Positions 4,963-24,574 of a stretch of DNA of 31,920 bases are shown here, one piece after another. The DNA lies in the NCBI GenBank assembly GCA_031431875.1, contig JANPEF010000093.1, positions 1 to 31,920 on the forward strand. Reading direction: 5' to 3'. Every line of letters starts with the position of its first letter. Position 1 is the stretch's first letter. The notes under the pieces are model-generated. The model made no database searches and was not told the DNA's origin. It saw only the letters and a program-made list of their open reading frames with translations. The position numbers were made by a program, and so were the translations under genes. The stretch is from Candidatus Eiseniibacteriota bacterium. Lineage in GTDB: Bacteria > Eisenbacteria > RBG-16-71-46 > DASYSL01.

Positions 4963-6549
4963 ATGCGCATGCTCCCGGCCTTCGCTCTCGCCGCCGCGTG
5001 CGTCGTCGTAGCTGCCGTCGCCATGCCGGCGCCGTCGAAGGCGGCGACGCCGGCGTACTTCTTCGACGGAACGGTGATCGGCGGAATCGACGCGCCGTCG
5101 AACTCGGAGTTCCTGCCGGACGGACGCATCTTCATCACGGGCCAGTACACGGCCCAGCTCACGCTGGTCGTGGGCGACGCGCCGGCGGTGGCGTATGTCG
5201 CCGGCACGATCCCCAACGTGCGCAGTGGCGGTGAGGCAGGGCTCGTGGGCGTCACCGTCGACCCGCAGTTCCCCACCCGGCCGTATGTCTATGTGCACGC
5301 GACGCACACGCCGCCCAACGAGATCCGCGTCACGCGCTACACGCTGACCGGTGACCTCGCGTGGGCCGGCAACGGTGCGATGACGATCGACCCCGCCTCG
5401 GCCCGTGTGATACTGGGCGGGCTACCCGACTTCGCGGCGAAGCACAACGGCGGCACGCTGCGTTTCGGCCCCGAGGGCATGCTCTACATCGGGCTCGGGG
5501 ACGACGACGATCCGTGCCGGGCGCAGGACCTGACGAAGCTGCAGGGCAAGATCCTGCGCGTCGACGTCGCGGGACTGCCCGCCGGGCCTGGCCCGGCACC
5601 GCGCTACGCCACGATCACGCCGGCGGGCAATCCGTTCGCCGCCCACCCCGACAGTGCCGCGCGCCTGGTGTGGGCGCTTGGACTGCGCAATCCGTTCAGC
5701 TTCACCATCGATCGAGTGACGGGCTGCCTCGTCATCGGCGACGTCGGCAACGAGGGTTGGGAGGAGATCGAGGTCGCCTGCAGCGGCGGCAAGAACTTTG
5801 GCTGGCCGCACTTCGAAGGGCCGACGCGCAGCGCTCTCACTTGCGCCGGTGCGGACACGACCGCGTTCGTCGCTGCCGCCTACGCATATCCGCACCCCGA
5901 GCCCGGCTACTCGGTGTTCGCGGGGCCCGTCTATCGTGCCCCGGCCGGCGTGGCCTACCCGTTCCCACTGGTGAACGAGGGCATGATCTTCATGGGCGAC
6001 ACGTGGCGCGGCTGGGTGCGCCGCCTCGCGCCGTCCGGACCCGACTGGGCGCTCGCGCCGCCCGAGTTTGGACAACCGAACGCTACAGACTGGGCCACCG
6101 GCATCCGCTACATCACGAGCATGCATGTCGGGCCGAAGGACGGCTGGCTCTACTACACGATGCTCTATCGCACGACGCCGACGTCGGGGCCGGGCGAGCT
6201 CCGGCGCTACGGCTACGTCGGACCCACGGCGGGAGTCGACGACCCGCCCGCCGGCGGGAGCGGCCTCGCCTTCACCGGTGCGCATCCCTCGCCTGCGCGC
6301 GGCGATCGACTGGTCGAACTCGCGTGGCGGCAGCCAGCGCCGGCGCCCGTCAGCCTGCGCCTGCATGACATGCGCGGCCGCTTCGTGCGCGCGCTCGTCT
6401 CGGCGGCCGACGGCGTGCGCGCCGCGGGTCCGCACCAGATGGCATGGGATGGTCGTGCAGCGGATGGCACGCGCGCGGTGCCGGGGGTCTACGTGGCAAC
6501 GCTCGAGTCGCAGGGCGAGAGGCGGAAGCTGCGGCTTGTCCGGCTTTGA
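4963..6549 (+). CDS. PQQ-dependent sugar (glucose/sorbosone) dehydrogenase family beta-propeller with C-terminal FlgD-Ig/T9SS-like domain, 528 aa
   Basis: Signal peptide; GEAGLVG, HNGGTLRFGPEGMLYIGLGD, GKILR, GNPF, GLRNP, DVG, NFGWP; C-terminal PSP...HDMRGRFVR...WDGR...PGVY. Confidence 0.85.
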   Translation: MRMLPAFALAAACVVVAAVAMPAPSKAATPAYFFDGTVIGGIDAPSNSEFLPDGRIFITGQYTAQLTLVVGDAPAVAYVAGTIPNVRSGGEAGLVGVTVDPQFPTRPYVYVHATHTPPNEIRVTRYTLTGDLAWAGNGAMTIDPASARVILGGLPDFAAKHNGGTLRFGPEGMLYIGLGDDDDPCRAQDLTKLQGKILRVDVAGLPAGPGPAPRYATITPAGNPFAAHPDSAARLVWALGLRNPFSFTIDRVTGCLVIGDVGNEGWEEIEVACSGGKNFGWPHFEGPTRSALTCAGADTTAFVAAAYAYPHPEPGYSVFAGPVYRAPAGVAYPFPLVNEGMIFMGDTWRGWVRRLAPSGPDWALAPPEFGQPNATDWATGIRYITSMHVGPKDGWLYYTMLYRTTPTSGPGELRRYGYVGPTAGVDDPPAGGSGLAFTGAHPSPARGDRLVELAWRQPAPAPVSLRLHDMRGRFVRALVSAADGVRAAGPHQMAWDGRAADGTRAVPGVYVATLESQGERRKLRLVRL

Positions 6550-6561: not shown

Positions 6562-9500
6562 CTAGGGCTTGACCTCGTCCGGCTCTCGGGCCGCGACCGC
6601 CTCGTCCGTCGCGGCGGCGGCGGCCTCACTGGGCGGGGCCTCGTCCTCCTGGACTTCGTCCTCGAGCTTCGTCGCCTCCGGCGTGGCCACGCCCTCGCCC
6701 TCGACCCGTGCCTCTTCCGGTCGCTCGGCGACCAGCTCCTTGAGCCGCCCGGCCAGCACTCGCACGAGGTCCTTCAGCAGCTGCGTGTCCCCGGTTGCGA
6801 AGTCGTAGAACTCCTCGCGACCCAGGGTGATCAGGAGCCCGTCCTCCAAGCTTTCGGCACGCTGCCCGCGCGCGGTGTCATCGACCAGGGCCCACGTCCC
6901 GAACGCCTCGCCGCTGCCAATCTCGGCGAGGGCCTGGTCGCCAGTCGACAGGCGCACACGTCCCTCCACGACCACGTAGAGCCCGTCGGCCGGATCGGCC
7001 TCCTGGTAGATGACCTGGCCCTTCCACATGGGGACTTCGCGCACGTACGCAGCGAGCGCGAGGAGCTGGCGTGGCCCCGCCTGCTTGAACAGGTCGATCC
7101 CACGCAAGTACAGCACTCTTTCGACTTCGTTCATCCTCGGCCTTTCGTCTTCGCCGCTCGCTGCGCGAACCGCGACGTCCGGCGCGAGCGCGGCGGCCCG
7201 CGCCGCCACCGCCTGGATCCACGGGTCCTCCGACTGCAGGGCCTTCTCAAGGAGCGGCCGCAACTCGATGTCCGCCGTCGGCTCTCCGGCCAGGGGCGCG
7301 GGCGCAACCTCAAGGATGCCACGCGCAATCTGAAACGAGCGTCCGGGCAGGAGCGAGCCCAGGTATTCGAGCGCACGCGCAGCCGACTCGCGGGACGATC
7401 CCGTGCGCAATCCCTCGTAGGCTCCCCGCAGGGGCGCCGGCCAATGATAGCAGGCCAGGGCGCGACAAGCCCGCGCCAGGGCACGATCGGCGGACTCGAA
7501 GTGCGACGCGCGCAGGAGCGCGACCGCGCCGTCGGCCGTCGCGGGGAGCGCGAGTGCGAGGTCGCTGTGGATCCGGTCATCGCGAATCTCGCGCAGGAAC
7601 ATCCGCAGCGCGTCCCGGCGCGAGACCTGCCGGCGCCCGCTCCGCTCGTGAATCCGGTTGAGGTTGCGCAGCCCGTGATAGCGCAGCACCGCGTCGCTGC
7701 TCCTCGCCAGGTCGAGCAGGAGGCGGCGCGCGTTCCGGCCGCCGATCCGGCTGAGCGCGGCGGCCGCGAGCGAGCGCACCTCGTCGTCCGGATGCTCGCG
7801 CGCCAGTTCCGCGAGCCGCGGCACGGCGCGCTCACCGAAGGCGACGACGGCATCCTGCGCCTCGAAGCGGAGGCCGCGATCGTCGAGATGCTCCAGGGCC
7901 ACGTCGAGGAACTCCGGCGCGGGTGTGCGCGCCAGCGCCTTCAGCGCGGCCCGGCGCACTTCCCGGTCGCGATGCGGCAGGAGCGCACGCAGGCGATCCT
8001 GCGCCGCGGGACCGGGTTGGTGAACGAGCCCGCGGCACGCATCGCGCAGGTCGTCCGGCGTGTCCGCGGCGATCTCGCGGTCGATCCAGTCGAGCGTGAT
8101 CGCGCCGTGCGCCAGCGCGGGCTTCGCCTCCATCAGGTCGAGCCCATGATCGCGGCGCGCCCGATCGTCGCCCTCGATCACCTCCCGCGCGAACGCGGGC
8201 GCATCGCGACCGTGCGTCAGCAGGGACTCGAGGGCGGCTCGTTGCAGCGGCTCGTACGGGTCGGCGAGGAACGACCGCATGCGCTCGTCCTCACCGGACA
8301 GCCCGAGGGCGATCGCTGCGCGGACGGCCTCGGTGCGGACCCGCGGCGACTCGTGGCCAAGCGCGCCGCGCACCGCCGGAGCGAGTGACGCCCGGCCCGC
8401 GCGGGCGGCGAAACGCAGCGCGATCGCGGCCCGACGCGGATCGTCCGATCCGATCGCATCGGCCAGCGCCTCGATCGCGCCCGGGACACGCAGCGACTCG
8501 AGTGCGCTGTCGGGCTCCGCCCACGGCGCGGCCAACGACTCGCGAAAGGCGCGCACGTAGCGGCGATGGAGCTGATAGAGCATGGCGATCCACACCAGGG
8601 CGGCCACGACGGTCAGGGCCGCGACGACGCGCACGCTGGCCCCGAGCAGGGAAAAGGTGACGAGCAGCAGCGCACCCGCCACGGCATCGGCCCCGCGCTC
8701 GACCACCACGTCGAGCGTGGGCTTGACCTGGCGCCTCTCCGGCGGCCGGATGGCCATGAAGTAGATCTCGGACGACGACTTCCCGAGCGTCTGGTAGACG
8801 ATGCCCTGGACCCATCGCATCGCCTGTGCCACCGGCCACAGCGGCGCGACGAAGAGTCCGACCCCGAACAGGAGCATCGACGCAGGCTGGAGGCCGCTCG
8901 CGGCGCCGATGCCGAGACGCCGCAGGAGCCAGCCGGCGACGCCGAACTGCACGATCAGCGCGAGGACGTTGAGCCCGGCGTAGAAGCCGCCGAGAAATCG
9001 GGCGAGGCCCACGGCGTCCGGGTACGCTTGCTGTGCGAGCGCCTTGAACTGGAAGTCGACGAGCGTCGAGACGACGACGGCGAGCCCGAGCGCGCCCGCG
9101 AGGTAGCGCAGGAACGTCGAATCGCGGAAGGCCGACCACTGCGAAGTTCCGGCCGCGACCTGGGTGAGCAGCGGCCGCTGGGGCAGGCGCGCCTTGAGCA
9201 CGAGCGTCAACAGGCGGAAGGCGAGCAGCAGCCCGCACAGGACCCAGAGGAGAAACGTCTCGCCGCGCCGGCCGGCGAAGATGCCGGCGAATGTGCCGCC
9301 GGCGACACCGCCCAGCAGTCCGCACCCGGTCAGCAGCGGAAAGATCCGGCGTGCGCGCTGGCTGTCCCAGGCGTCGAGCGCGGTGATCCAGAAGTGCGAG
9401 ACGAGCAGCAGCGTCTGGCTACCGGTCCAGATGTAGAACGCCGCGGGCAGCCACGGAGGGTGGCTCGGTGCCAGCAGCGCCGCGGCGGCGCTCAGCGCGA

Positions 9501-9789
9501 TCGCGGTGGATTGCGTGAGCCCACTGACCCAGTTCGCTGGGAGTCGGCGGGCGAGTCGCGACTCGAAGGTGATGAGCCCGATCGCCGCCGCGGCCACCGC
9601 GACGTACCCCCAGGGCAGGGCACTCGCCCCGTAGGCCGTGAGGAACATCGAGTCGCGCAGGACCTTGGCGATCGTGTAAGCCGCGAGCAGGCAGGCAATC
9701 TGTCCGCCCATGAGGACGAGCACGAGGCGATCCCCGGACTCGAGATCGAGGCGACGATCCAGCCGTTCACCCACGAGCAAGCGAGCCAT
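6562..9789 (-). CDS. Npt/TLC (ATP/ADP translocase)-like transporter fused to HEAT repeats and a C-terminal cyclic-nucleotide-binding domain, 1075 aa
   Basis: ATG 9789 with GAGGT RBS. N-terminal ~12-TM region with KVLRDSMFL, FWITALDAWDSQRARRIFP, VDFQFK, ERRQVKPTLDVVVERGAD; HEAT-like units (SPRVRTEAVRA, REVRRAALKAL, DEVRSLAAAAL); cNMP domain IYQEADPADGLYVVVEGRV..GEAFG. Confidence 0.87.
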   Translation of the reverse strand: MARLLVGERLDRRLDLESGDRLVLVLMGGQIACLLAAYTIAKVLRDSMFLTAYGASALPWGYVAVAAAAIGLITFESRLARRLPANWVSGLTQSTAIALSAAAALLAPSHPPWLPAAFYIWTGSQTLLLVSHFWITALDAWDSQRARRIFPLLTGCGLLGGVAGGTFAGIFAGRRGETFLLWVLCGLLLAFRLLTLVLKARLPQRPLLTQVAAGTSQWSAFRDSTFLRYLAGALGLAVVVSTLVDFQFKALAQQAYPDAVGLARFLGGFYAGLNVLALIVQFGVAGWLLRRLGIGAASGLQPASMLLFGVGLFVAPLWPVAQAMRWVQGIVYQTLGKSSSEIYFMAIRPPERRQVKPTLDVVVERGADAVAGALLLVTFSLLGASVRVVAALTVVAALVWIAMLYQLHRRYVRAFRESLAAPWAEPDSALESLRVPGAIEALADAIGSDDPRRAAIALRFAARAGRASLAPAVRGALGHESPRVRTEAVRAAIALGLSGEDERMRSFLADPYEPLQRAALESLLTHGRDAPAFAREVIEGDDRARRDHGLDLMEAKPALAHGAITLDWIDREIAADTPDDLRDACRGLVHQPGPAAQDRLRALLPHRDREVRRAALKALARTPAPEFLDVALEHLDDRGLRFEAQDAVVAFGERAVPRLAELAREHPDDEVRSLAAAALSRIGGRNARRLLLDLARSSDAVLRYHGLRNLNRIHERSGRRQVSRRDALRMFLREIRDDRIHSDLALALPATADGAVALLRASHFESADRALARACRALACYHWPAPLRGAYEGLRTGSSRESAARALEYLGSLLPGRSFQIARGILEVAPAPLAGEPTADIELRPLLEKALQSEDPWIQAVAARAAALAPDVAVRAASGEDERPRMNEVERVLYLRGIDLFKQAGPRQLLALAAYVREVPMWKGQVIYQEADPADGLYVVVEGRVRLSTGDQALAEIGSGEAFGTWALVDDTARGQRAESLEDGLLITLGREEFYDFATGDTQLLKDLVRVLAGRLKELVAERPEEARVEGEGVATPEATKLEDEVQEDEAPPSEAAAAATDEAVAAREPDEVKP

Positions 9790-9833
9790 CGACACCTCGG
9801 GGAGGCAGGAAGAACACGGGCAAACCCAGAGCG

Positions 9834-9862
9834 ACTGTAGACCGGGCGGCGGTCCGCGTCGA
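9834..9862 (-). promoter_or_regulatory. Putative sigma70 promoter of the NTT-HEAT-cNMP gene
   Basis: TCGACG-17 nt-TACAGT on the minus strand, about 45 nt before the ATG. Confidence 0.45.
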
Positions 9863-10075
9863 GCTTGCAGCCCGGGGAAGCCCTTGCCCGCAGGCCGGTT
9901 GCGCGATTCGGGGGTGACAGGCTCACCGTAGATGGGTTCTAATGGTGAGGCCATCCACGCTGGCTTCGCTGAGATTCTGGGTCCTTCCTGTGATCTGGAA
10001 ATTTGATCAGGGCGAATCTGGTGTGCGCGAAGGCGCCCATCCTCTCCTTCGACGTTGCCACGAGGAGTTCCGCGG

Positions 10076-11443
10076 ATGCGCCTTGAAACAACACTCCCGT
10101 CTGTCCCCATCAAGGTGAGCTGGCTTGGCGCCTCCCTGCTACTTGCGTTGGCGACGGCCGGCCCCGGCGTGGAGGCCCACGCGCAGACGAACCCGGCCTT
10201 CGGGGACTCCGGCTGGGTCGCACCCCTGCCCCCGGGGACGTTCGACGGCGATCCGACCGCGCCCGGCCCCCGGGTCTCCGACGAAGTCGGTGAGCCCGTC
10301 GGCGAAACGGTCCTGCGCACACCATTTCGCATTCTCTTCCTGCCACTGCGCCTGGTCGCCCGCGGAGCCGAAGCCATCGCCGGAGTCGCCGGCGGGAGCG
10401 TCGCTCCGAAGAGCCTGCACGACCAGAAGTCCCCGGGGCTCAAGATCCGCCCGGCCGTGCTCTACGCCGGCGAGTCCGACCCGGCGATCGGCATCCGCGT
10501 GGTTTCGGTGCTCGACCCCGCGCACGAGACGCAATGGGGCGCCGCCGGATCGTGGTCGCTGAGGGATTCGCGCAAGGCCCAGCTCGGCTACCGCCGGGGC
10601 ACCACCGAGGACCACTGGGGAGTGCGGGCGATCACCAACTACAACTACCGGCCCTTCCGCACCTACTACGGAATCGGCAATTCGACGAGCAACGCGGACA
10701 AGTCGATCTACCTGGACGAGGTCGGCGTGGCCGACGTCGCCCTGCGCCTGGGACCCGTCGGCCGTTCGCTGGAGCTCCTCGGCGGCTATGACATCACCAG
10801 CGCGCGCCGCGGCTACAATGGTTCGAGCCCCGGTGTGCTCGAAGTGTTCACGCCGGCCGAGGCCCCCGGCATCAATGATGCATCGCAGGCACTGTCCTTC
10901 GGACTGGGCGGTGAGCTCGCACTGGTCGCGGACCGACGCGATCCCACCTCCGGCGTCCACGGACGCTTCGAGGCCCGCAAGGTGAACGCCCAGGGCGGTG
11001 GGGATTTCAACCTGTGGCAGTTTCGTCTCGAGGCCCGCGGCTACATCCCGATCGCCTCGAAGCGGCGGGTACTCGCGCTGCGCGCCCTCCACCACAGCAT
11101 CGACCCGGTGCGCGACGACGCCGTGATCCCCTTCTACCGCCTGCCCGAGGCGGCCGGGCTCACCAACTTCGCGGGTTACGTGACCCATCGATTCGTCGAC
11201 CGGCATCTCGTCCTCGCCCACGCCGAGTACCGCTGGCTCATCATGGACCGACTCTGGGCGCTGGGCCTCGCCGAGGTCGGCGAGGTGGCCTCCTCGGCCA
11301 GTCGCCTGCGCATGTCCGACGTGCACGAGAGCTACGGCGGAGGCATACGCTACGCATTTCGCGAGGGCGCCGTGGCCCGCCTGCAGATCGCCACGGGGAC
11401 CGACGGCCTTCGTGCGGCGCTCACGCTCAATGGAGACTTCTGA
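10076..11443 (+). CDS. Omp85/BamA-TamA superfamily outer-membrane beta-barrel protein, 455 aa
   Basis: ATG 10076 with GAGGAG RBS; signal ending AHA; amphipathic strands; D.RRDPTSG, EARGYIP, IPFY.LP, RFVD...AEYRW, SYGGGIRY; terminal Phe (LTLNGDF). Confidence 0.82.
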   Translation: MRLETTLPSVPIKVSWLGASLLLALATAGPGVEAHAQTNPAFGDSGWVAPLPPGTFDGDPTAPGPRVSDEVGEPVGETVLRTPFRILFLPLRLVARGAEAIAGVAGGSVAPKSLHDQKSPGLKIRPAVLYAGESDPAIGIRVVSVLDPAHETQWGAAGSWSLRDSRKAQLGYRRGTTEDHWGVRAITNYNYRPFRTYYGIGNSTSNADKSIYLDEVGVADVALRLGPVGRSLELLGGYDITSARRGYNGSSPGVLEVFTPAEAPGINDASQALSFGLGGELALVADRRDPTSGVHGRFEARKVNAQGGGDFNLWQFRLEARGYIPIASKRRVLALRALHHSIDPVRDDAVIPFYRLPEAAGLTNFAGYVTHRFVDRHLVLAHAEYRWLIMDRLWALGLAEVGEVASSASRLRMSDVHESYGGGIRYAFREGAVARLQIATGTDGLRAALTLNGDF

Positions 11444-13101
11444 TGAACCGCCCCGAGTTCCTCGCGATCGTGCTCGCGCTGACGCTGCTCCCCCTGGTCT
11501 CCGATCCCCGCGCCGAGGGCGTGACCGTCGATCCCAAGACGGGCGTCGACCATGATGGCCGGCCGATCATGAAACCGAAGGAGCGCGAGAAGAACCTCCA
11601 TGCTCACCAGTTCCGCGAGGCGGTGGTCGAGCCGCTGTCGCACGCGTTCGACGTGCCCGACAAGTTGCTGTGGCTCTCGCGGCAGCTGACCGGCGGGACC
11701 AAGCCGCAGAGCGTGAACGTGAATCGCTTCGACGAAGTGCCGAACTCGACGTGGTTCACCAACCGGAATCACGTGCGCGCGGTGACCCCGGACGCGGTCC
11801 GCCGTGGCGCCGGTGACGACCTCAAGCCCACACCCCCCTACACGGTCAAGTCGTACAAGCTCTCGGGCGTGAACCCGGGCTTCATCATCAAGGACGCGGC
11901 GGATCGGCGCTGGGTGATCAAGCTCGATCCGTCCGGCCATCCGCAGCTCGGCTCGGGGGCCGATGTCGTCGTCAGCCGCCTGCTCCACGCCGCCGGCTAC
12001 AACGTGCCGCACGACGTGGCGTTCACGTTCAGCCGCGCGGAGCTCACGATCGACGAGGACCTCGCGAGCGGCAAGGACGGTGCCAGGCCGTTCCTCCCCG
12101 GCGACCTCGACACGCTGCTCACCTATGGGGCACTCGGCGCGGACGACCGCTCCTACGCCCAGGCCAGCCTGTTCCTCGACGGGGTGCCGGTCGGCCACAT
12201 CGACATGAGCGGTCGCCGACCGGACGATGCGAACGACCTCTACCAGCACCGGGACCGACGCGAGTTGCGCGGGCTCTATGTCCTCATGTCGTGGCTCGGG
12301 AGCTGGGACACGAAGGACCACCAGTCGCTCGACACGTTCCTCGAGACGCAGGACTCGCTCGGCCACGTCCGCCATCACCTGCTCGACCTGGGTGCGTCAC
12401 TCGGCGCCGCCGCCGAAGGGGCGAAGGGCGAGCGCAACGGTTACGAGTACCGGCTCGACTGGGGCTGGACGATGAAGCGCCTGTTCACCTTTGGCATGGC
12501 CAGCGAGCCGTGGCGCGGCGGCTGGCAGGAAACGGGCATCCCCTCCCTGGGCAACTTCTCCGCCGAGCGCTACGAGCCCGACGACTTCAAGCCACTCATG
12601 CCGCACCCGGCGTTCGGCAAGCGCACCGCGCGCGACGGCTACTGGGGGGCGAAGCTCGTTGCCTCGTTCAGCGATGCGCAGATCGCCGCGGCGATCGACG
12701 CCGTCGGCTACGAGGATCCGCGCGTCGCACCGCTGCTGCTCCGCATCCTCACGGATCGGCGGGAGCGCGTGGCGCGCTACTGGTTCGAGCGTGTGGCGCC
12801 CGTCGACTACTTCCATATCGACTCCGGGCAGCTCCGGTTCCGCGATCTCGCCGTCGATCGGAAGCTCGCGCCCCCGCGGGCCTATCGCGTCCGCCTGAGT
12901 TCGTCCGCGGGCAAGCGGACTTCCGGCGCTCCCTCGATCCAGACTGTGCGGACGACGATGATCTCGCTCGAGACGATCGCCGCCGGCGCCGACCAGATCG
13001 AGCTCGAGGTCGGAATCGACGGCGACCCGGCCGAACCCGCGACCGTGCTGCTGCGCCGCAGCGGCGGCGAGTGGATCCTCGAGCGGGTGGTGCACGGATG
13101 A
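11443..13101 (+). CDS. Exported hypothetical protein with atypical protein-kinase-like (HipA/PI3K/CotH-like) motifs, 552 aa
   Basis: TGATG overlap with the Omp85 gene; signal peptide; SGVNPGFIIKD..RRWVIKLD, ADVVVSRLLHAAGYNVP, WDTKDHQ, LLDLGASLG. The ORF is secure; the fold is inferred. Confidence 0.7.
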   Translation: MNRPEFLAIVLALTLLPLVSDPRAEGVTVDPKTGVDHDGRPIMKPKEREKNLHAHQFREAVVEPLSHAFDVPDKLLWLSRQLTGGTKPQSVNVNRFDEVPNSTWFTNRNHVRAVTPDAVRRGAGDDLKPTPPYTVKSYKLSGVNPGFIIKDAADRRWVIKLDPSGHPQLGSGADVVVSRLLHAAGYNVPHDVAFTFSRAELTIDEDLASGKDGARPFLPGDLDTLLTYGALGADDRSYAQASLFLDGVPVGHIDMSGRRPDDANDLYQHRDRRELRGLYVLMSWLGSWDTKDHQSLDTFLETQDSLGHVRHHLLDLGASLGAAAEGAKGERNGYEYRLDWGWTMKRLFTFGMASEPWRGGWQETGIPSLGNFSAERYEPDDFKPLMPHPAFGKRTARDGYWGAKLVASFSDAQIAAAIDAVGYEDPRVAPLLLRILTDRRERVARYWFERVAPVDYFHIDSGQLRFRDLAVDRKLAPPRAYRVRLSSSAGKRTSGAPSIQTVRTTMISLETIAAGADQIELEVGIDGDPAEPATVLLRRSGGEWILERVVHG

Positions 13102-14747
13102 GGGCGCTGATCGCCAGCGTCGTGGCCGCGATCCTGCTCGCAGTGCTCGGCTCCGGCTGCGCGCAGATGGGCAAGCTGTCGTTCGTCGATCCGATCGCCC
13201 CGGTCGTCCCGGCCGACATCGCGGAGGCGCAGGACTCCTCGCGCGTCGCCGCCGGAATCCCCCGGGAGCGCGCCAGAGACGAGGGCGAGGAGGGTGAGGA
13301 GCACGAGCGGAAGCGCAACCGGGAGCGGACGCCCGACTCGCGCCCGAGCATCCCCCTGCGCGCCATGTTCGCCGACACGCTGGTGGGCTTCCAGCCCGGC
13401 ACCGCCGACAGCGCGCGGCGCCACCTCGGCCGCCTGCGCGAGGGCTACACCGTCGACACGCTGAGCGTGGTGATCATGGGCGACAACCGCCCGTCGTACC
13501 GCTCGACCCGATTCCGCAACAACACGGATGCGATCAAGGGCATTGCCTCGCTCAATCCGCTGCGCATTCTCAAGGGCCTCGTGAACATTCCGATCTTTCT
13601 CGTCCGGGGCACGATCCCGGACCTCGCCCTCTGGCGAGACATCCCCTCCCTCATCTCGAAGAACCCGAGCTACGGGCGCGAAGTCCCGGTGATGAACGCG
13701 ATCCTCGCCCGCATGGATTCGATCGAGGCCCGCGGCAGTCGCGTCTCCGCCGTGATCAACTCGGGCGACATCGTCAAGGATGGGCGCTTTCCCCAGCACT
13801 GGGAGCGCTTCCTGCGCATCACGAGGCCTCTCTACGACCGTGTGCCCTACATGCCGATCGCCGGCAACCACGAGCGGACCGACGATTCTCTCGGTCTCGC
13901 CAACTGGCACACGGCGACGGGACTGCCGATCACGGGAAACCTGCTCAACTACTGCTTCGACTCGGCCGACGGCTGGGTGCGCTTCATCGCCCTCGACTCG
14001 AACCCGATGACCGATCCGAAGCACTACTGGTCGCGCGAGGACGAAGTGGCGGCGACGAACGAGCAGTTCACCTGGATGGTGGCCCGCCTCAAGGAGCACC
14101 GTGGCCCGGCCATGGTGTTCCTGCACCACCCCCCATTCTGCCTCGGGTTCCACCGCGCCGAGTGGGAGTCGGACAGCCTGCTCTCCGCGCGACGCGCCAC
14201 GATGGTGACCGCGCTGCGCGAGGCGGGCCTCGCGGTCCTGGTCTCGGGCCACGAGCACGCCTACGAGCGAGCCGCCCTCGTGTGCGGGGACGCCGTGCTC
14301 GTGTGCATCGTCTCCGGAGGGGCCGGAAGCCCGCTGCACGTGATTCCGACCGGAGAGGAGGCGGGGCGGATGTTCGCCGCCTACGAGCTTCCGGACTGCG
14401 GTTTCAAGCCGGAGGACGTCTACGCGAGCATGACCTTCTCGTACACGGTGATGCGCTTCTGGTTCGGCGGCGGCGACTTGAACACCTACGCCGTCGACGC
14501 GAAGGGCAAGGACCAGCTGATCGACCACCTGGCGATCGACCTCGAGCGCTTCGGCATCCCCGAGATCGACCAGAAGAAGATCGTCATTCCCCCCGCCAGC
14601 GGCCCGAAGCAGCCGACGCCGAGCGAGGAGACATCCAGCACCGTACGCACGGTCGCCCCGTCGGACTCAGCGTCGGCCGTCAAGCCGGTGACCAAGCCGG
14701 CGTCCAAGCCGGGCGCCACGACGCGCACTTCCCCAGGAGGCCGCTGA
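13098..14747 (+). CDS. Calcineurin-like metallophosphoesterase lipoprotein, 549 aa
   Basis: ATGA overlap; lipobox GSG-C; motifs GDNR, SGDIV, GNHE, HHPP, GHEHAYER; Pro/Ser/Thr/Lys-rich tail. Confidence 0.88.
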   Translation: MRALIASVVAAILLAVLGSGCAQMGKLSFVDPIAPVVPADIAEAQDSSRVAAGIPRERARDEGEEGEEHERKRNRERTPDSRPSIPLRAMFADTLVGFQPGTADSARRHLGRLREGYTVDTLSVVIMGDNRPSYRSTRFRNNTDAIKGIASLNPLRILKGLVNIPIFLVRGTIPDLALWRDIPSLISKNPSYGREVPVMNAILARMDSIEARGSRVSAVINSGDIVKDGRFPQHWERFLRITRPLYDRVPYMPIAGNHERTDDSLGLANWHTATGLPITGNLLNYCFDSADGWVRFIALDSNPMTDPKHYWSREDEVAATNEQFTWMVARLKEHRGPAMVFLHHPPFCLGFHRAEWESDSLLSARRATMVTALREAGLAVLVSGHEHAYERAALVCGDAVLVCIVSGGAGSPLHVIPTGEEAGRMFAAYELPDCGFKPEDVYASMTFSYTVMRFWFGGGDLNTYAVDAKGKDQLIDHLAIDLERFGIPEIDQKKIVIPPASGPKQPTPSEETSSTVRTVAPSDSASAVKPVTKPASKPGATTRTSPGGR

Positions 14748-16210
14748 TGATCGGCACCGAACAACCCGCCGCGACCACGGCCGACGCTGGACGGCGCGGA
14801 CCGCTCGACCGCGTGCTCAACATCTTCTCCGACGTCCACGGCGGCGAGGGCACGACCGCCCTCCTCCTGCTCCTCAACGTCTTCCTGCTGCTCGCCAGCT
14901 ACTACCTGATCAAGACGATTCGCGAGCCGCTGGTGCTGGCGGCCGCGGGCGGCGGCGCCGAGATCAAGAGCTACGCCTCGGCAGCCATCGCCGGGCTGCT
15001 CATCGTGCTCGTGCCGGTCTACTCGGCGATCGCCTCCCGGGTTTCCCGCGTCAAGCTGATCAACGGCGTGACGTTGTTCTTCATCGCATGCCTCGTCGGC
15101 TTCTTCCTGTGGGCCCAGGCGGTCGGCATTCCCGGCACGATGCCCGGAGAGAGCAAGGCCACGGCCGAGACCGCCGCCGCCGCGGGAGCCGGACAGCTCG
15201 CCCTCGGCGTGTCGTTCTTCATCTGGGTGGGGATCTTCAACCTGATGATCGTCGCCCAGTTCTGGGCCTTCGCCAACGACGTGTACACCGTCGAGCAGGG
15301 CAAGCGATTGTTTGCCATCGTCGCCTTCGGCGCCTCGCTCGGGGCGATCGCCGGCTCGTGGGGTGCCGAAAACCTGATCGAGCGCTTCGGGCTCTACCCG
15401 CTCATGGGCATCGCCGCCGGCATCCTCGCGCTGTGCATCGTGCTGACGAACCTGGTGCACGTGCGCGAGAGGGGGCACGCGAAGGAACGGGCCAGCGCGA
15501 AGTCGAACGATCCCGCCGCCGTGGCTGCCGGTGACGCCGACGCGGTGATCACCGGCCGCAGCGGCTTCGCGCTCGTCTTCGCCGATCGCTATCTCCTGCT
15601 CATCGCCGGACTCATGATCCTGCTCAACCTGGTGAACTCGACCGGCGAGTACATCCTCGGCGAGACGCTGACGAATATCGCCAAGGACCGGGTGTCCCAG
15701 GGACTGATGGCCGAGGCCGACATCGGCGCGTGGATCGGTTCGTTCTACGGCAACTACTTCTTCTGGGTGAACACGGTCTCGGCGATCGTGCAGCTGTTCC
15801 TGGTGTCGCGGATCATCAAGTTCTTCGGCGTGCGCGGCGCCCTGCTCGTGTTGCCCGTCGTCGCCCTCGGCGCCTACGCGATCCTCGCCGTGGCACCCGC
15901 ACTGGCGTTCATCCGGGGCGCGAAGATCGCCGAGAACGCACTCGATTACTCCCTCAACAACACGACCCGGCAGACGCTGTTCCTGCCCACGTCGCGCGAG
16001 GCCAAGTACAAGGCCAAGCAGGCCATCGACACGTTCTTCGTGCGCTTCGGGGATGTCCTGTCGGCCGGGCTCGTCTTCGCCGGCACGACATGGCTCGCGT
16101 TCACGCCGAAGCACTTCGCGATGGTCAATGTGGGGCTGGTGCTGCTCTGGCTGGGCGTCGCCTTCGCCATCGGTCGGATGTTCCGCGAGCGTTCGGGGGG
16201 CGAGGCGTAG
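14747..16210 (+). CDS. Npt1/Npt2 (TLC ATP/ADP translocase)-like nucleotide transporter, 487 aa
   Basis: AGGAGG RBS, TGATG overlap; YYLIKTIREPL, FFIWVGIFNL..VAQFWAFANDVY..EQGKRLF, DYSLNNTTRQTLFLPTSREAKYKAKQAIDTFFVRFGD; ~12 TM. Confidence 0.88.
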   Translation: MIGTEQPAATTADAGRRGPLDRVLNIFSDVHGGEGTTALLLLLNVFLLLASYYLIKTIREPLVLAAAGGGAEIKSYASAAIAGLLIVLVPVYSAIASRVSRVKLINGVTLFFIACLVGFFLWAQAVGIPGTMPGESKATAETAAAAGAGQLALGVSFFIWVGIFNLMIVAQFWAFANDVYTVEQGKRLFAIVAFGASLGAIAGSWGAENLIERFGLYPLMGIAAGILALCIVLTNLVHVRERGHAKERASAKSNDPAAVAAGDADAVITGRSGFALVFADRYLLLIAGLMILLNLVNSTGEYILGETLTNIAKDRVSQGLMAEADIGAWIGSFYGNYFFWVNTVSAIVQLFLVSRIIKFFGVRGALLVLPVVALGAYAILAVAPALAFIRGAKIAENALDYSLNNTTRQTLFLPTSREAKYKAKQAIDTFFVRFGDVLSAGLVFAGTTWLAFTPKHFAMVNVGLVLLWLGVAFAIGRMFRERSGGEA

Positions 16211-16231: not shown

Positions 16232-17488
16232 TCACTCCGGCACCGGGGGACGGGGCTGGCTGGGCTGACCGGGCTGGCTGGGCCCGGGCAGCCCGGCGAG
16301 CCCGGCGCCCGAGGGGCCGTTCGGCACGGCCCACGCGCCCACCTCCTCTGCACCCACCTCCCCCGTCTCCGGCACATGCGCCGGCTCGTCTCTCGGCGAC
16401 ACTCGTCGCCGAGCCTCGAGGCGCTTCCTCTCCATGAATTGTGCTCCAAAGACACGCTCGGCCTCGTACTGATTGTGGGCCCGGCAGCGCAATCGCATGC
16501 GGTCCTCGGTCGCGAGCCCCCCACGGGCCACCGGATCGATGTGGTCGAGCTCGAGAAACGACCGTGTCGAGCAGCGATTTCCGGTGCCCCCGACGAAGGT
16601 GCATCGGCCCCGGTCCCGCTCCCAGACAGCGCGCCTCACGTGGGCCGGAACGTGGCGCTTGCCCACACCGGAACGCCGGGGCGCCTGGGGATGCGGAGTG
16701 ACGGCGAACTTCCGTTTCTCGCATTGCTCGATCAGGGCTTCGAGTGCCCGTTCGAGGACAAGAGCCACGTCGCGCGAGGGGATGGAGTGGCTGAGCAGGT
16801 CCTGGGCGTAGCGCAGCTTTTCCTGTGCACCCTGGCCGATCGTGATCTGGAGCAGGAAAAGCGCCGGCATCTCGACTTGCGCCGGCGCAAGTTCACCGTC
16901 GGCGGGTTCCTCGACTTGCGCCGGCGCAAGTTCACCCCCGGACGCCACCTCGACTTGCGCCGGCGCTCGCTCGCCGTCGGGCGCGGGCCGGGCCGAGGGG
17001 CGCGCGACTTGCGACGGCGCAAGTTGGGGTACCAGCGCAGCGGGCATCGGCTGCAGGGTGCGCGCATACGCGGCGACCTCCATGCGGGGATAGCGCCGCC
17101 CGAGCATCCCCTCGATCGCCGATTTCCTCTGGTCGCTCGCTGCGGCAAGCAACTCGTCCGCGTTCTCGGGGGTGAGATGCGGCACGAGCAGGCCCAGTCC
17201 GGTCAGGTGGAGGCGACCCTCGGCCAGGGCGACAAGAAGCGCCGGAAACTTCCGGCCGGCGCGTGCTGCCTGAATCCGCTTGTAGGCCGCATCCTCGGAG
17301 AGGCGGAGTTCCTCGACACAATAGGCGTACATGGAAGAGTAACCCGCGGACCGGTAGAGGCCGCGGGCATCAACTTCGGCGATGTGGGCGAGAAGTGCTG
17401 CGGTGATCACACGATCGCGGACGACGAGTCCGGCCAGATCACGAAGGAGGGCCGCGTCGCTCAGATGCTTGAGGTCATGGGCACGCAT
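16232..17488 (-). CDS. HNH endonuclease with DUF222-like N-terminal domain, 418 aa
   Basis: N-terminal LSD..LL...LLAHIAEVDARGLY...GYSSMYAYCVEELRLSEDAAYKRIQAAR; C-terminal VRRAVWERDRGRC...C....LELDHIDPVARGG.......LRCRAHN; more A/T-ending codons than flanking genes. Confidence 0.88.
   Translation of the reverse strand: MRAHDLKHLSDAALLRDLAGLVVRDRVITAALLAHIAEVDARGLYRSAGYSSMYAYCVEELRLSEDAAYKRIQAARAGRKFPALLVALAEGRLHLTGLGLLVPHLTPENADELLAAASDQRKSAIEGMLGRRYPRMEVAAYARTLQPMPAALVPQLAPSQVARPSARPAPDGERAPAQVEVASGGELAPAQVEEPADGELAPAQVEMPALFLLQITIGQGAQEKLRYAQDLLSHSIPSRDVALVLERALEALIEQCEKRKFAVTPHPQAPRRSGVGKRHVPAHVRRAVWERDRGRCTFVGGTGNRCSTRSFLELDHIDPVARGGLATEDRMRLRCRAHNQYEAERVFGAQFMERKRLEARRRVSPRDEPAHVPETGEVGAEEVGAWAVPNGPSGAGLAGLPGPSQPGQPSQPRPPVPE
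16871..17024. repeat. Four copies of the 18-bp palindrome ACTTGCGCCGGCGCAAGT inside the HNH gene
   Basis: Perfect at 16875-16892 and 16914-16931, right half degenerate at 16953-16970, one mismatch at 17007-17024; spacing 39, 39, 54; encodes (E/Q)LAPAQV. Confidence 0.9.
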
Positions 17489-17713: not shown

Positions 17714-18871
17714 CTACGATTTCGTCACCCCCGACTTGCGAACTTCCGTCGCGCTCCAGTCATCCGCCACGGTCCGTCCCGGACCGTAGGACGTGAACAG
17801 CTTGCCCCACTCACTCTGCAGGATCGTCTCGACGCGCGGCTTGCCGACGAACGGGTACCAGTAGGCGTCGTGATACAGCCGCGAAGCGGCAAAAGCCCAG
17901 GGCACGATCGGAGTCCGTAGAAGAAAGTGTTCCAGCGGCTTCAAGGGCCCCCAGTAGATGAGCTTCTGGCCGCGCGAGGCCATGGTGTCCTCGCCGGGCG
18001 AGAAGTGGAGGTTGACCCCGGAGACGTCGTCGCCGACGAGCTCGATCTCGGCCGGGTCGCCCACGCCCAGGCCCGCCTCGTGCGCCAGGCGGATGTACTT
18101 GAGCCCCATCGGGTCGATGCCCATGAGCTTCGCGCCGATCGCGTCGATGGCGACCATGTCGTTCGAGGCGAGGATCAGGTTGGCGATGCGAGGGCGCATC
18201 GCGCGCGGGCCGGGCCCGTCGCCGGCGACCGTGCCATCCATGATGGCGAACAGCCCGGGGTGGATCTCCTTCTGGATGGCGAGCAGGTCGACCAGCGTCT
18301 CGTGGATCACCGCGTGCGTCCAGTGGCGATTCTCCTGGAGCAGGCCGCCGAACGCGTTCTTCATCGCGCCGGTCGTCGTGGTGAAGACGTGCGTCTTCAA
18401 GGTCGGCATGTGGATCACGTTGCTGCCGATCAGGCGCTTGGGCACGAGAATGCCCTTGGGGAATACCTCGTTCAGCACCCGCATCTTCGCCTTCGGCTCG
18501 TACTTCACCCACTCGGTGCCGGGCTCGTTCAGGTACTGGATGTCGACCTTCGCGCGATCGAGCACCGGCTGCAGGTTGTTGTTCACCGCGCCGACGCGGC
18601 AGTCGACGACCACGGTGCGATTCTGCGCGGCGTAGATCTTTTCGCGCGGATGGCCGATCGCGACCAGCTTGTCGATCGCCGCCTCGAGCTGCCACGGCGT
18701 CGTCGAACACGCCGGCATGTAGACATGCCACGAGATGTTGATACGCAGCGACGTCTCGGGACCCACGGGCAGCGCCTCGCGGATGCCGGCCAGGTCCATG
18801 AGCCGCGCGTAGTCCTCGCGCACGGTCTGTGGATTCGTGAACAGGACGGCAACCTTCGAACGGGGGGTCAC
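17714..18871 (-). CDS. DUF362 domain-containing protein, 385 aa
   Basis: GTG 18871 in a GTGA overlap with the ACAD stop; INISWH..PACSTTPWQL, PTLKTHVFTTTTGAMKNAFG, IMDGT.AGDGPGP, ILASNDMVAIDA. Confidence 0.85.
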   Translation of the reverse strand: MTPRSKVAVLFTNPQTVREDYARLMDLAGIREALPVGPETSLRINISWHVYMPACSTTPWQLEAAIDKLVAIGHPREKIYAAQNRTVVVDCRVGAVNNNLQPVLDRAKVDIQYLNEPGTEWVKYEPKAKMRVLNEVFPKGILVPKRLIGSNVIHMPTLKTHVFTTTTGAMKNAFGGLLQENRHWTHAVIHETLVDLLAIQKEIHPGLFAIMDGTVAGDGPGPRAMRPRIANLILASNDMVAIDAIGAKLMGIDPMGLKYIRLAHEAGLGVGDPAEIELVGDDVSGVNLHFSPGEDTMASRGQKLIYWGPLKPLEHFLLRTPIVPWAFAASRLYHDAYWYPFVGKPRVETILQSEWGKLFTSYGPGRTVADDWSATEVRKSGVTKS

Positions 18872-20070
18872 GAGGCGGTCTCCGTGGGGTGGGTCGCCGG
18901 CGCGGCATCGAGCTGCGCGGCGGCGGCGGCGGCGACCAGTTCGCGGGCGATGACGATGCGCTGGATCTCGCTGGCGCCCTCGTAGATCTCGGTCACGCGC
19001 GCGTCGCGGTAGTAGCGCTCGACCGGGTACTCCTTCACGTAGCCGTAGCCGCCGTGGATCTGGATCGCACGATGGGTGACGAACGTCGCGGCCTCCGAGG
19101 CGTACAGCTTCGCCATCGAGGCGTCGATGCGGTGCGGCAAGCCATTCATCTTCTTCCACGCGGCGCGGTGAACGAGCAGGCGGGCGCCGGCAACGCGGCG
19201 CTCCATCTCGGCGATGAGGAACGCCACCGGCTGGTGCTCGTGCAGCTTCTTGCCAAACGTCACGCGTGTGTCCGCATACTTCACCGCTTCGGCGAAGGCC
19301 GCGCCAGCGATTCCCAGCGACTGGGCGCCGATGCCGATCCGCCCGCCGTCGAGTGTGCTCATCGCGATCTTGAAGCCCTGGCCCTCGGCGCCGAGCCGGT
19401 TCGCCACGGGCACGCGGCAGTCCTGCAGCGCGAGCTCAACCGTGTCCGAGGCCCTGAGCCCCATCTTGTCCTCGTGCTTCCCGACCGAGAACCCCGGCAG
19501 GTCGGGCGTGACGAGGAACGCGGTGATGCCACGCGGGCCCACAGCGGGATCCGGATCCGTGCGCGCGAACAGCACGATGACGCCCGCCTGGGCTCCGTTG
19601 GTGACCCAGTTCTTCGTGCCGTTGAGGACGTAGTGATCGCCGTCGAGCCGCGCTGCGCACGACAGGCTGGCCGCGTCGGAGCCCGCGCCGGGCTCGGACA
19701 GCGAGAACGCACCGAGCGTACCGGCGGTCAACAACGGCAGGAAGCGGGCCTTCTGCTCGTCCGTGCCGTAGGTGACGAGCGGCCAGCAGCACACCGAGTT
19801 GTGGACCGAGATCATGACCGACAGCGCGGCCGAGACGCGCGCCAGTTCCTCGAGCGCGATGGCGTAGGCCAGCGCGTCGTAGCCCACGCCGCCGTGCTCC
19901 TCGGGAACGAGCAGGCCGTAGAAGCCCAGCTCGGCGAGTTGCGCGAGCGCGGCGGTCGGCAGGATCCTGTCGTGGTCCCACGCCGCGGCATGCGGCGCGA
20001 ATTCGCTGGTGGCGAGGTCGCGGATCATGTCGCGCACCTGCTGGTGGTCGGGCGAGAGCCGGAAGTCCAC
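18868..20070 (-). CDS. Acyl-CoA dehydrogenase (short/branched-chain type), 400 aa
   Basis: [73 protein letters not shown] start 20070. Confidence 0.93.
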   Translation of the reverse strand: MDFRLSPDHQQVRDMIRDLATSEFAPHAAAWDHDRILPTAALAQLAELGFYGLLVPEEHGGVGYDALAYAIALEELARVSAALSVMISVHNSVCCWPLVTYGTDEQKARFLPLLTAGTLGAFSLSEPGAGSDAASLSCAARLDGDHYVLNGTKNWVTNGAQAGVIVLFARTDPDPAVGPRGITAFLVTPDLPGFSVGKHEDKMGLRASDTVELALQDCRVPVANRLGAEGQGFKIAMSTLDGGRIGIGAQSLGIAGAAFAEAVKYADTRVTFGKKLHEHQPVAFLIAEMERRVAGARLLVHRAAWKKMNGLPHRIDASMAKLYASEAATFVTHRAIQIHGGYGYVKEYPVERYYRDARVTEIYEGASEIQRIVIARELVAAAAAAQLDAAPATHPTETAS

Positions 20071-20072
20071 GC

Positions 20073-21220: not shown

Positions 21221-21221
<1 letters not shown>
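20073..21221 (-). CDS. Acyl-CoA dehydrogenase family protein (more divergent), 382 aa
   Basis: GAFAVTEREAGSDA, NGEKVMVTNG, GRIGVAAQ, QVHGGWGY, RDARVTTLYEGTSE; TGATG overlap with hbd. Confidence 0.9.
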
Positions 21222-22068
<847 letters not shown>

Positions 22069-22072
<4 letters not shown>

Positions 22073-24437: not shown

Positions 24438-24545
24438 GCGATCTCCGGGTCGGCCTGGATGCGGCGCGTCGCGGGATGGGGCCGGGCGGCCCCGCTCCGG
24501 AGGGACGAGCGGCGCAGGGGGTTCAAGAAACGACGGTGTCCCCGC

Positions 24546-24574
24546 ATTGTAGCGGGCGGACGCCCCCCGCTCAA
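24546..24574 (-). promoter_or_regulatory. sigma70 promoter of the acyl-CoA operon
   Basis: TTGAGC-17 nt-TACAAT on the minus strand; the -35 overlaps the upstream gene's TGA; the -10 sits inside the inverted repeat CCCGC/GCGGG (24541-24556). Confidence 0.65.

Follow-up and report, generated by a model that had tools for sequence, protein, structure and literature searches.

Described NTT carriers, Omp85 barrels and periplasmic ATP

According to the part of the survey by Major, Embley and Williams (2017, PMC5381601) on which we draw, all characterized NTT carriers serve uptake by parasites or organelles. The same part calls NTT-HEAT(-cNBD) fusions of free-living bacteria uncharacterized, in agreement with the original prediction made for the locus described here, which had considered such homologues poorly understood. 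For NTT-HEAT fusions it proposes that they take up ATP or exchange it between cells or membranes, and near NTT-HEAT genes it mentions neither an Omp85 nor an exported kinase, a phosphatase or a second NTT. Residues K155, E245, E385 and K527 are those of the canonical ATP/ADP exchanger AtNTT1 (PMC10654386, PMC3306366); the K527 Glu mutant cannot bind ATP (PMC3306366).

Omp85 barrels of the noNterm type resemble those fused to PF00149 (‘Metallo’ subfamily) (Heinz and Lithgow 2014, PMC4104836). The lid-lock motifs of Omp85 proteins are (L/M)RG(W/Y) and FxDxG (PMC11358297); the word ‘kinase’ is absent from the main texts of both papers. The periplasm, earlier taken to be devoid of an ATP pool, is not strictly ATP-free: periplasmic ATP is measurable in E. 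coli, which has no translocase, and how ATP passes the inner membrane to reach the periplasm is described as unknown (PMC7432876).

Organization of the locus

The window is a stretch of 31,920 nt from Candidatus Eiseniibacteriota bacterium (contig JANPEF010000093.1); five intact, unbroken ORFs were confirmed within its positions 6562..16210. On the minus strand lies NTT1 (6562..9789, 1075 aa), a TLC/NTT-family carrier with HEAT repeats and a cNMP-binding-like domain. Its start is the ATG at 9789 with GAGG upstream; a longer TTG frame (to 10443) overlaps the Omp85 gene and is an unlikely start. The divergent intergenic region (9790..10075), presumed to hold the promoters of both units, is largely conserved in the nearest relative (L001), and no regulatory element was identified in it. 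On the plus strand follow a POTRA-less Omp85 barrel with a signal peptide and a short N-terminal tail (10076..11443), an exported atypical protein-kinase-like enzyme with a C-terminal FN3 domain (11443..13101, 552 aa), a calcineurin-like metallophosphoesterase predicted to be a lipoprotein (13098..14747) and NTT2, a single-domain TLC/NTT-family carrier (14747..16210, 487 aa). Re-reading of the sequence reproduced the predicted stop/start overlaps (TGATG at 11443, ATGA at 13098 and TGATG at 14747) and the divergent NTT-HEAT-cNMP gene. In tblastn the genome shows one copy of each of these five genes, except for one weak second phosphoesterase. No RNA holder is listed for 6562..16210, and the window neighbours beyond 6562-16210 do not recur as a set across homologous loci.

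A literature search, with most subscription journals outside its coverage, found no published description of such a system, in line with the earlier statement that no characterized system of this composition was known. We propose, with a probability of about 0.6, that the locus encodes a trans-envelope module in which ATP exported by the carriers feeds a cycle of periplasmic kinase and phosphatase.

The predicted exported kinase

The structure of the 552-aa protein was predicted by AF2 with pLDDT of 94.4. A fold search returned 14 chains at Z 10.2-14.4, every one an atypical kinase: CtkA gave VIA Z of 14.4 (rmsd 3.5, 222 aligned), followed by Fam20C (13.3), PI4KIIa (12.8) and CotH (12.1), and Foldseek matched Fam20C at E 2e-4. 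The predicted model thus confirms a bilobed PKL fold of an atypical kinase (CtkA/Fam20C/PI4K2/CotH-like) at about 115-450, joined to FN3 at about 451-545. The kinase fold, initially inferred by eye, was borne out by structure prediction and fold search, and catalytic residues are present. The protein keeps K160, D289, K291 and D315; among 150 homologues K160 is conserved in 142, D289 in 146 and D315 in 147. The family metal-binding N294 is Q in the Eisenbacteria kinase, as in 25/150 family members, and the family E174 is D. Roles of these residues (beta3 Lys, catalytic Asp, metal-binding Asn, DFG Asp) are assigned by motif, not from coordinates.

The protein has a signal-peptide-like start. 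Our signal-peptide heuristic was positive for 144/150 kinase homologues vs 17/1500 internal windows and 0/44 cytoplasmic neighbours, which agrees with the predicted export of the product. Fam20C and CotH also act outside the cytoplasm.

The fold is shared with Fam20C, CotH, CtkA, PI4KIIalpha and HipA (Z 11-14); however, identity is 7-15%, and the kinase profile run against PDB sequences gave no kinase match and nothing beyond armadillo-repeat noise. Unlike these atypical kinases, the Eisenbacteria kinase has an FN3 tail, a docking motif and an Omp85 partner. No Pfam or NCBIfam family matched, including the Fam20C/CotH/HipA families, and the nearest named clusters in the atlas score only 0.79-0.81. 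The family is large: 2413 clusters (50% identity) at E up to 0.001 and 585 up to 1e-30. A dedicated search for longer fused kinase forms found none, a weak negative, and fusions were later seen in loci. In P0241 a phosphatase is fused to the kinase.

The Omp85 barrel and its predicted complex with the kinase

The barrel protein (455 aa) matches PF01103 with 24.6 bits vs a cut-off of 24 (E 2e-05) and has no POTRA match. BamA/TamA chains match its family profile over the barrel portion only (best E 1e-16). On these profile matches it is assigned to the Omp85 superfamily as a noNterm-type member without POTRA domains. Like described noNterm barrels it is POTRA-less; PF00149 is the phosphoesterase family encoded in the same locus. 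The family consensus keeps LRGY and FxDxG; the Eisenbacteria copy reads FAGY and LAEVG. A search for longer fused barrel forms returned only BamA/TamB-type proteins, again a weak negative, with fusions later seen in loci; single-ORF fusions of NTT2 and Omp85 occur in three genomes (L036, L076 and L080).

The multimer prediction for Omp85 and the kinase scored 0.76, the best of three controls scoring 0.00; the runs share at least 79% of contacts, and partner pLDDT is at least 84. The 0.76 mark is reached by 116/157 solved complexes and 2/215 mismatched pairs, rates that are only rough for the alignments used here. In the model, Omp85 residues 40-84, 330-331 and 385-395 form the interface, and the kinase is predicted to dock on the periplasmic face of the barrel, bound by the Omp85 N-terminal tail. 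Omp85 had been suggested as either a translocator or a scaffold; the model is consistent with a scaffold and speaks against a translocator of a surface kinase, as it puts the kinase on the N-terminal, periplasmic side.

The kinase occupies the place of POTRA in this model, and a second kinase family is fused to Omp85 at the POTRA position. Both would fit an ATP-powered gate or motor, in which the kinase fold, fed by the NTTs, would serve as a switch for nucleotides or as an ATPase that opens or drives the Omp85 barrel in lipid or protein traffic at the outer membrane and leaves no lasting phosphorylated product. Catalytically dead kinases (see below) retain their Omp85 partner, so the pair has a nucleotide-independent job, a point that we count on the same side. 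We nevertheless regard a gate or motor as quite improbable: recurrent and interchangeable phosphatases, one of them kinase-fused (P0241), suggest a phosphorylated product, and a related dikinase module has no regular barrel.

Phosphoesterase and phosphate-related neighbours

The phosphoesterase matches Pfam Metallophos (3e-10). Five metal motifs (at 128, 223, 256, 342 and 384) and a lipobox-like Cys are present in full-length Eisenbacteria orthologues; by sequence we assign it to PF00149 as a member with five predicted metal-binding motifs. It had been suggested as the enzyme opposing the kinase; it is optional and replaceable, a metallophosphoesterase being found in 24/80 kinase loci and PAP2 in 11.

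Altogether phosphatases occur in 34/80 kinase loci and PiT/NptA in 6/80 (plus L140 and L142); PhoU-like, phytase-like and PhoB/R-like genes are among the neighbours. Such genes would suit scavenging: a phosphorylated nutrient or nucleotide would enter through the barrel and be converted by periplasmic enzymes (the kinase fold might form or trap a phosphorylated product), with the NTTs importing what results and linked Pi importers taking the phosphate; all characterized NTTs import, in the part of PMC5381601 cited above. Yet the kinase would still require a periplasmic phosphoryl donor, the host synthesizes purines, ATP and NAD itself, the barrel family keeps the lid-lock motifs with the mouth occupied by the kinase in the model, and unrelated exported enzymes that consume ATP take the place of the kinase next to the same carriers. 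We therefore consider scavenging unlikely.

The NTT carriers

Pfam finds TLC (6e-06), HEAT_2 (1e-19) and cNMP_binding (2e-13) on one NTT1 chain and TLC (3e-16) in NTT2. The two carriers score 59.9 and 25.7 bits against PF03219 (curated cut-off 21), and the NTT2 family profile run against PDB matches only the solved NTTs (9j3n at 6e-19 and 9j3j at 5e-10). Both carriers are thus placed, by profile, in the NTT/TLC (AAA) family. The NTT1 cNMP cassette reads GEAFGTW, with the Arg kept; its Thr occupies a position that is usually Glu, and the replacement is seen in 9/9 Eisenbacteria copies compared. This cassette lends no support to the earlier suggestion that the HEAT-cNMP tail gates flux. The architecture of NTT1 is exactly that of the NTT-HEAT-cNBD fusions of free-living bacteria described in PMC5381601.

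Likeness to the NTTs of Chlamydiae, Rickettsiales and plastids extends to a TM1 basic/acidic cluster and a C-terminal K..K..ID. In NTT2, Y52, K56, R59, E60, E301, K424, D428, R433 and D436 are invariant in 24/24 sequences. However, unlike those NTTs, the carriers have Asp at the K527 column and Gly at the E245 column. With AtNTT1 columns mapped by hand on 9j3j (offset 84), NTT2 has A, G162, N297 and D436 at K155, E245, E385 and K527, respectively; its K74 and E301 sit four residues (one turn) from the aligned canonical columns. NTT1 has Asp368 at the K527 column, and E245 is absent from both carriers. Against TIGR00769 they score 61.3 and 27.4 bits, far under the cut-off of 387.2. The carriers do not look like canonical ATP/ADP exchangers, contrary to what had been supposed. 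In motifs compared by eye (supplement sequence), the NAD carrier PamNTT4 has the same Asp and no E245; thus the cargo may not be ATP.

Another difference from the NTTs of parasites and plastids is that the host is metabolically complete and that outward flux is proposed. Its genes include purH and those for ATP synthase gamma, NAD synthase and QPRTase, so there is no need to import ATP or NAD; energy or NAD parasitism was rejected on these four marker genes.

Linkage and coupled loss

Omp85 lies directly upstream of the kinase in 71/80 GTDB loci, and an NTT is found within the retrieved DNA in 43/80, a linkage far beyond chance. The gene set is common to many unrelated free-living bacteria. 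In four phylum samples, genomes with both kinase and NTT, kinase only, NTT only and neither numbered 59/7/8/47, 30/2/8/73, 9/1/42/69 and 20/4/33/64, which agrees with the anticipated co-occurrence of the genes elsewhere.

Of 14 genomes with the kinase but no detectable NTT, 11 contain only degenerate, catalytically dead copies; K/D/D is intact in 63/66 kinases whose locus also includes an NTT. In the NTT-less family, two genomes that do possess NTTs have an additional intact kinase next to these. All seven dead kinases in the own-phylum sample belong to one family and may represent one event. Intact kinases without a detectable NTT occur in G438 and G212; the gene that follows the intact kinase in G438 (457 aa), considered as a hidden carrier, proved to be DUF1501. 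PF03219 alone gave no match in five NTT-less genomes and was equally silent in 14 controls, so this search does not show absence. No NTT is nearby in 20/44 long kinase loci, and 40/162 NTTs in the tree have no such partner in the retrieved DNA, often standing beside cNBD/response-regulator genes. Genes, folds, export signals, linkage and coupled loss are computed results; barrel–kinase binding and its sidedness are predictions.

Other exported phosphotransferases on the same carriers

A signal-peptide-bearing PPDK_N dikinase and an Omp85-fused kinase are further partners of the same NTT clades. In the tree (162 rows, PamNTT4 left out) carriers linked to these enzymes are nested among kinase-linked carriers. 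Plastid glucan, water dikinase is supplied by the plastid NTT, and the dikinase module resembles this pair; apart from its own clusters, the closest look-alikes of the dikinase in the atlas bear a GWD1 phospho-His domain (score 0.89, no more than a lead). The dikinase module is absent from the window, and the dikinase is unrelated to the Eisenbacteria kinase. Homology of stand-alone and Omp85-fused kinases was not shown by profile–profile comparison (hhalign, 1% and 16% probability). In L224, a 1223-aa Omp85 fusion has the kinase fold between a phosphoesterase-like N-terminus (motifs seen by eye, no Pfam match) and the barrel; given this order, the Eisenbacteria locus looks like a split analogue.

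No NTT match was found in eleven genomes with the Omp85-fused kinase. Genes neighbouring these kinases are of the DUF4956, phytase-like or CotH kind, and a VTC domain is present in 3/5 such genomes. Together with the PamNTT4-like columns, E. coli periplasmic ATP measurable without a translocase (PMC7432876), NTT-HEAT-cNBD-regulator operons away from the kinase and Hanks kinases in 20/80 kinase loci, these genomes fit carriers that are not the ATP source of the kinase. The carriers would then transport NAD+/ADP or have a sensory role (NTT-HEAT with cNBD, response regulator, histidine or Hanks kinases), while the kinase would draw on a donor such as leaked ATP or polyphosphate. This leaves unexplained why exactly the ATP-binding residues are lost where the NTT is missing, VTC has no match in the Eisenbacteria genome, and the 4/4 NTT-less family-f13 genomes have VTC but dead kinases; we hold such an arrangement to be improbable.

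Coupled loss of the NTT and of kinase catalytic residues, as well as partner swapping beside the same NTT clades, supports nucleotide supply to an exported enzyme.

Against ATP export stand the absence of K527 and E245, G438 and G212, the eleven NTT-less fused-kinase genomes, the partnerless NTTs, Q294 and the uptake role of known NTTs.

Proposed mechanism and implications

In the ATP-export module, inner-membrane NTT carriers would move adenine nucleotide outward, in the simplest case ATP out and ADP back. The exported kinase, hanging below the periplasmic mouth of the barrel and held by the barrel N-terminal tail, would use this ATP to phosphorylate something handled at the barrel. The substrate may be an envelope lipid or glycan rather than protein, which is a tentative guess. 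A phosphatase (the metallophosphoesterase here, PAP2 elsewhere) would reverse or complete this step; phosphate would in some lineages be recovered by a Pi importer linked to the module. We only infer ATP as the cargo, the outward flux, the substrate and any HEAT-cNBD regulation.

There is perhaps an even chance that many free-living Gram-negatives have a dedicated ATP export line with at least three exported phosphotransferases plugged in (the Omp85-docked kinase, the Omp85-fused kinase and the GWD-like dikinase). This would be an ATP-dependent phosphorylation compartment comparable to the secretory pathway of eukaryotes, and an Omp85 barrel under ATP control may be part of it. The module would define a large unnamed kinase family, and POTRA-less Omp85 barrels would gain their first partner and a role. 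It names candidate ATP exporters and a candidate consumer and thereby makes the periplasmic ATP route, and the role of NTTs in free-living bacteria, testable by standard assays.

Gene organization and genomic context

All five genes of the original prediction are present. The carrier NTT1 (9789..6562, − strand, 1075 aa from the ATG at 9789) is divergent from genes for an Omp85 barrel (10076–11443), a kinase-fold protein of 552 aa (11443–13101), a metallophosphoesterase (13098–14747) and the single-domain carrier NTT2 (14747–16210, + strand), which are joined by stop/start overlaps TGATG at 11443, ATGA at 13098 and TGATG at 14747. Pfam assigned to the five genes, in order, TLC+HEAT+cNMP, Omp85, no family, Metallophos and TLC. 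The nearest named relative, labelled Ca. Eisenbacteria, has identical gene order and a kinase with 90% identity. In the parts of the sources available, NTT-HEAT-cNBD fusions are described as known and uncharacterised (PMC5381601), and noNterm and PF00149-fused Omp85 proteins as known (PMC4104836, PMC11358297); no description of the combination appeared in listings from a library that lacks bioRxiv supplements and the majority of subscription journals.

The host genome (3.75 Mb, 98% complete) has no match to VTC and encodes purH, ATP synthase gamma, NAD synthase and QPRTase; these four markers, short of a complete pathway audit, argue against reliance on imported ATP or NAD. Elsewhere in the window, a 418-aa ORF (16232–17488, −), convergent with the operon, has an HNH-like C-terminal stretch, short internal repeats and a weak match to an IscB model (E 0.002), and is likely to be a selfish or mobile gene. 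At 4963–6549 (+) lies the gene for an exported, glucose/sorbosone-dehydrogenase-like protein that ends in a FlgD-type tail, three acyl-CoA dehydrogenases cluster with a 3-hydroxyacyl-CoA dehydrogenase at 18868–24761 (−), and two long ORFs (852–2696 and 29130–31586, both +) had no Pfam match.

Fold and predicted export of the kinase

The kinase is a member of an extensive family without a name, of which 2413 representatives matched at E ≤ 0.001. Its AlphaFold2 model, built with 150 homologues, reached pLDDT 94.4, and all 14 best structural matches were atypical kinases, led by CtkA (Z 14.4, rmsd 3.5, 222 aligned) and including Fam20C (Z 13.3), PI4KIIalpha (12.8), CotH (12.1) and HipA (11.1); residues 451–545 matched FN3 domains. 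The family consensus is HxDxK/RxxN plus DFG, with K160, D289 and D315 conserved in 142/150, 146/150 and 147/150 sequences (roles were assigned from motifs, without coordinates). In the window's kinase N294 is replaced by Q and E174 by D. A signal-peptide-like start, called by a simple in-house heuristic, was found in 144 of 150 homologues, but in just 17 of the 1500 internal windows and none of the 44 cytoplasmic neighbours used for comparison; a lipobox-like Cys occurs in 58 of the 144. The modelled fold and the start of most homologues bear out the earlier description of an exported kinase-fold protein.

Some relatives differ in architecture. A subfamily of ∼440–460 aa (loci L026, L100 and L240–L243) lacks FN3 and retains the operon; a C-terminal PAP2 phosphatase is fused to the kinase in protein P0241, and an N-terminal GT4 glycosyltransferase in P0251, a single case that may be read-through.

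Predicted docking beneath the Omp85 barrel

GTDB yielded at least 604 kinase matches; in the best 80 of these, Omp85 lies immediately upstream of the kinase in 71 loci and elsewhere in the locus in 2. It was not seen in the remaining 7, which include two very short contigs. Multimer prediction, which had been proposed for this pair, yielded a complex of Omp85 36–455 with kinase 26–552 scoring 0.76, while the best of three controls scored 0.00; contact agreement between runs was at least 79% and partner pLDDT at least 84. Of 157 solved complexes, 116 attained this mark, as did 2 of 215 mismatched pairs; these counts apply only approximately to the alignments used here. The model supports binding of the kinase by Omp85, through the barrel's N-terminal tail 40–84 and turns 330–331 and 385–395 and a kinase surface that takes in the conserved DEVPxSxWFTNR stretch. 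Alignment with BamA, whose topology we take to apply here, would place these barrel segments on the periplasmic side, so that the kinase would occupy the place of the POTRA domains.

In three loci NTT2 and Omp85 form a single ORF (L036:6884-9367, L076:740-3121, L080:7395-9803), and the joint resembles an internal signal peptide. These inner-membrane NTT/outer-membrane Omp85 fusions are possibly polyproteins cleaved by signal peptidase.

Co-occurrence of kinase and carrier

NTT genes were present in the fetched DNA of 43 of the 80 kinase loci; of the 44 loci flanked by 6 kb or more on both sides, 24 had one. A phosphatase was found in 34 of the 80 (metallophosphoesterase in 24, PAP2 in 11), and PiT or NptA in 6. 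Phosphate importers that are not homologous to each other (PiT with DUF47; Na/Pi cotransporter with PhoU) lie in or beside the operon at L002, L010, L011, L049, L078, L140 and L142. Hanks-type Ser/Thr kinases of ∼500 aa adjoin a shorter NTT-HEAT form in 20 of 80 loci (L015, L016, L019, L030, L036, L045, L063, L187 and L190 among them), in Gemmatimonadota, Acidobacteriota and Myxococcota. The outer-membrane module also occurs in records labelled Bifidobacterium, Heliobacteriaceae and Clostridia (L080, L035, L026); the L080 and L035 carriers group with those of Acidobacteriota, so there may be errors of labelling or binning.

The co-occurrence of kinase and NTT across genomes, suggested originally as a check, was positive in four phylum samples. 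Counts of genomes with both, kinase only, NTT only and neither were 59/7/8/47 in the window's own phylum (121 genomes), 30/2/8/73 in that of genome G001 (113; one 'both' genome, G168, has only a short kinase match), 9/1/42/69 in that of G004, a Kofleriaceae record (121), and 20/4/33/64 in that of G002, a Vicinamibacterales record (121). The G001 record is titled Cytophagia; its phylum, being so small, is probably not Bacteroidota proper. Fisher p-values were 2e-17, 9e-18, 0.002 and 3e-5, respectively, leaving out two unpublished 'both' genomes (G020, own phylum; G402, G002 phylum); they are overstated because related genomes are not independent.

All 14 kinase-only genomes of the four samples were inspected for kinase residues. 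The seven from the window's phylum, all of one family (f13) and 92–97% complete, have only dead kinase copies, typically with K160E, D289R/G, N294R and D315G and with Omp85 still in front; a second NTT profile had no match in the five re-searched. The two NTT-bearing f13 genomes have a dead copy plus an intact kinase adjoining the carrier. Kinases are also degenerate in G334, G384, G399 and G463, from two other phyla, and G194 carries D315E. The kinase is intact in G212, whose operon is at a contig end, and in G438, and neither profile matched an NTT in either genome. K/D/D is retained in 63 of 66 kinases sharing a locus with NTT (exceptions: D289E twice, one truncation). Since dead paralogues are present in NTT-positive genomes too, the rule is that intact kinases almost always come with a carrier.

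Pseudokinases at L094–L097, L226–L230, L238, L244 and L245 retain the Omp85 partner, which implies a nucleotide-independent role for the pair. Other degenerate kinases have a conserved C-terminal extension of ∼400 aa with no Pfam match (L247:5571-8405, L251:4227-7148, L252:2398-5298).

Carriers with other exported phosphotransferases

In 7 of the 8 NTT-only genomes of the G001 sample, NTT-HEAT adjoins beta-lactamase-fold genes; six of these show a PPDK_N dikinase of 900–980 aa with a signal-peptide-like start, and the seventh is at a contig edge. Among ten NTT2 orthologues from kinase-less genomes of the G004 sample, four adjoin the dikinase, one a beta-lactamase-fold gene (contig edge) and five neither. 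In the conserved dikinase module NTT-HEAT, frequently accompanied by NTT2, occurs with two kinds of exported protein, a PPDK_N/GWD-like dikinase and beta-lactamase-fold proteins (L146, L150–L154, L156, L175–L177, L179).

At L181–L183 the order is NTT-HEAT, cNBD, NTT and a protein of 880–900 aa in which an N-terminal domain is joined to Omp85. This domain family has a predicted kinase fold (pLDDT 77; CotH Z 14.7, PI4KIIalpha 14.2, CtkA 12.6). Such Omp85-fused kinases were also observed at L030:17207-19786 and L211–L225. At L224:6891-10559 (1223 aa) a phosphoesterase-like domain precedes the fusion, a layout suggesting that a kinase fold is concealed in the published 'Metallo' class of Omp85 proteins.

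In a FastTree tree of 162 carrier domains (a quick method; long branches, unrooted), dikinase-linked NTT-HEATs (9 rows, support 100) are nested within a clade of 23 rows, most of them kinase-linked (support 99). The window's NTT2 and dikinase-linked solo carriers share a 55-row clade (support 100), and fusion-linked carriers group with kinase-linked ones (11 rows, 100); 40 of the 162 rows had no kinase, dikinase or fusion partner within 7 kb.

Is the cargo ATP?

Several observations speak against the favoured reading of ATP export to an exported kinase. The four AtNTT1 residues, from the accessible part of PMC10654386, were placed on chain 9j3j by an offset of 84 (K71, E161, E301 and K443 of the alignment). 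NTT2 has Ala, G162, N297 and D436 in these columns, and G, N and D do not vary across 24/24 sequences; its K74 and E301 are four residues away from the matching columns. NTT1 has D368 at the column of AtNTT1 K527, and its cNBD cassette has Thr in place of Glu. In AtNTT1, K527E abolished ATP binding and E245K abolished transport, according to the portion of PMC3306366 available. PamNTT4, which Major et al. report as an NAD transporter in the available part of PMC5381601, has the same Asp and lacks the Glu when its supplement sequence is compared by eye; this clade can thus carry nucleotides, yet the cargo may not be ATP. Among 16 genomes bearing Omp85-fused kinases (unpublished G234 included), 11 had no NTT match; the beta3 residue of the fused kinases in this group is Arg (21/21), and some of them have DUF4956, phytase-like or CotH genes close by.

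The envelope system is real and widely conserved, and apparently undescribed. The accessible part of PMC7432876 calls it unknown how ATP reaches the periplasm, and quotes a periplasmic ATP level that was measured in E. coli. We favour, with a probability of roughly 0.6, a reading in which the putative NTT exporters would deliver ATP to a periplasmic kinase held beneath the Omp85 barrel, with the phosphatase as the counterpart of the docked kinase. Across the modules, what is constant is a carrier together with an exported enzyme that needs ATP.
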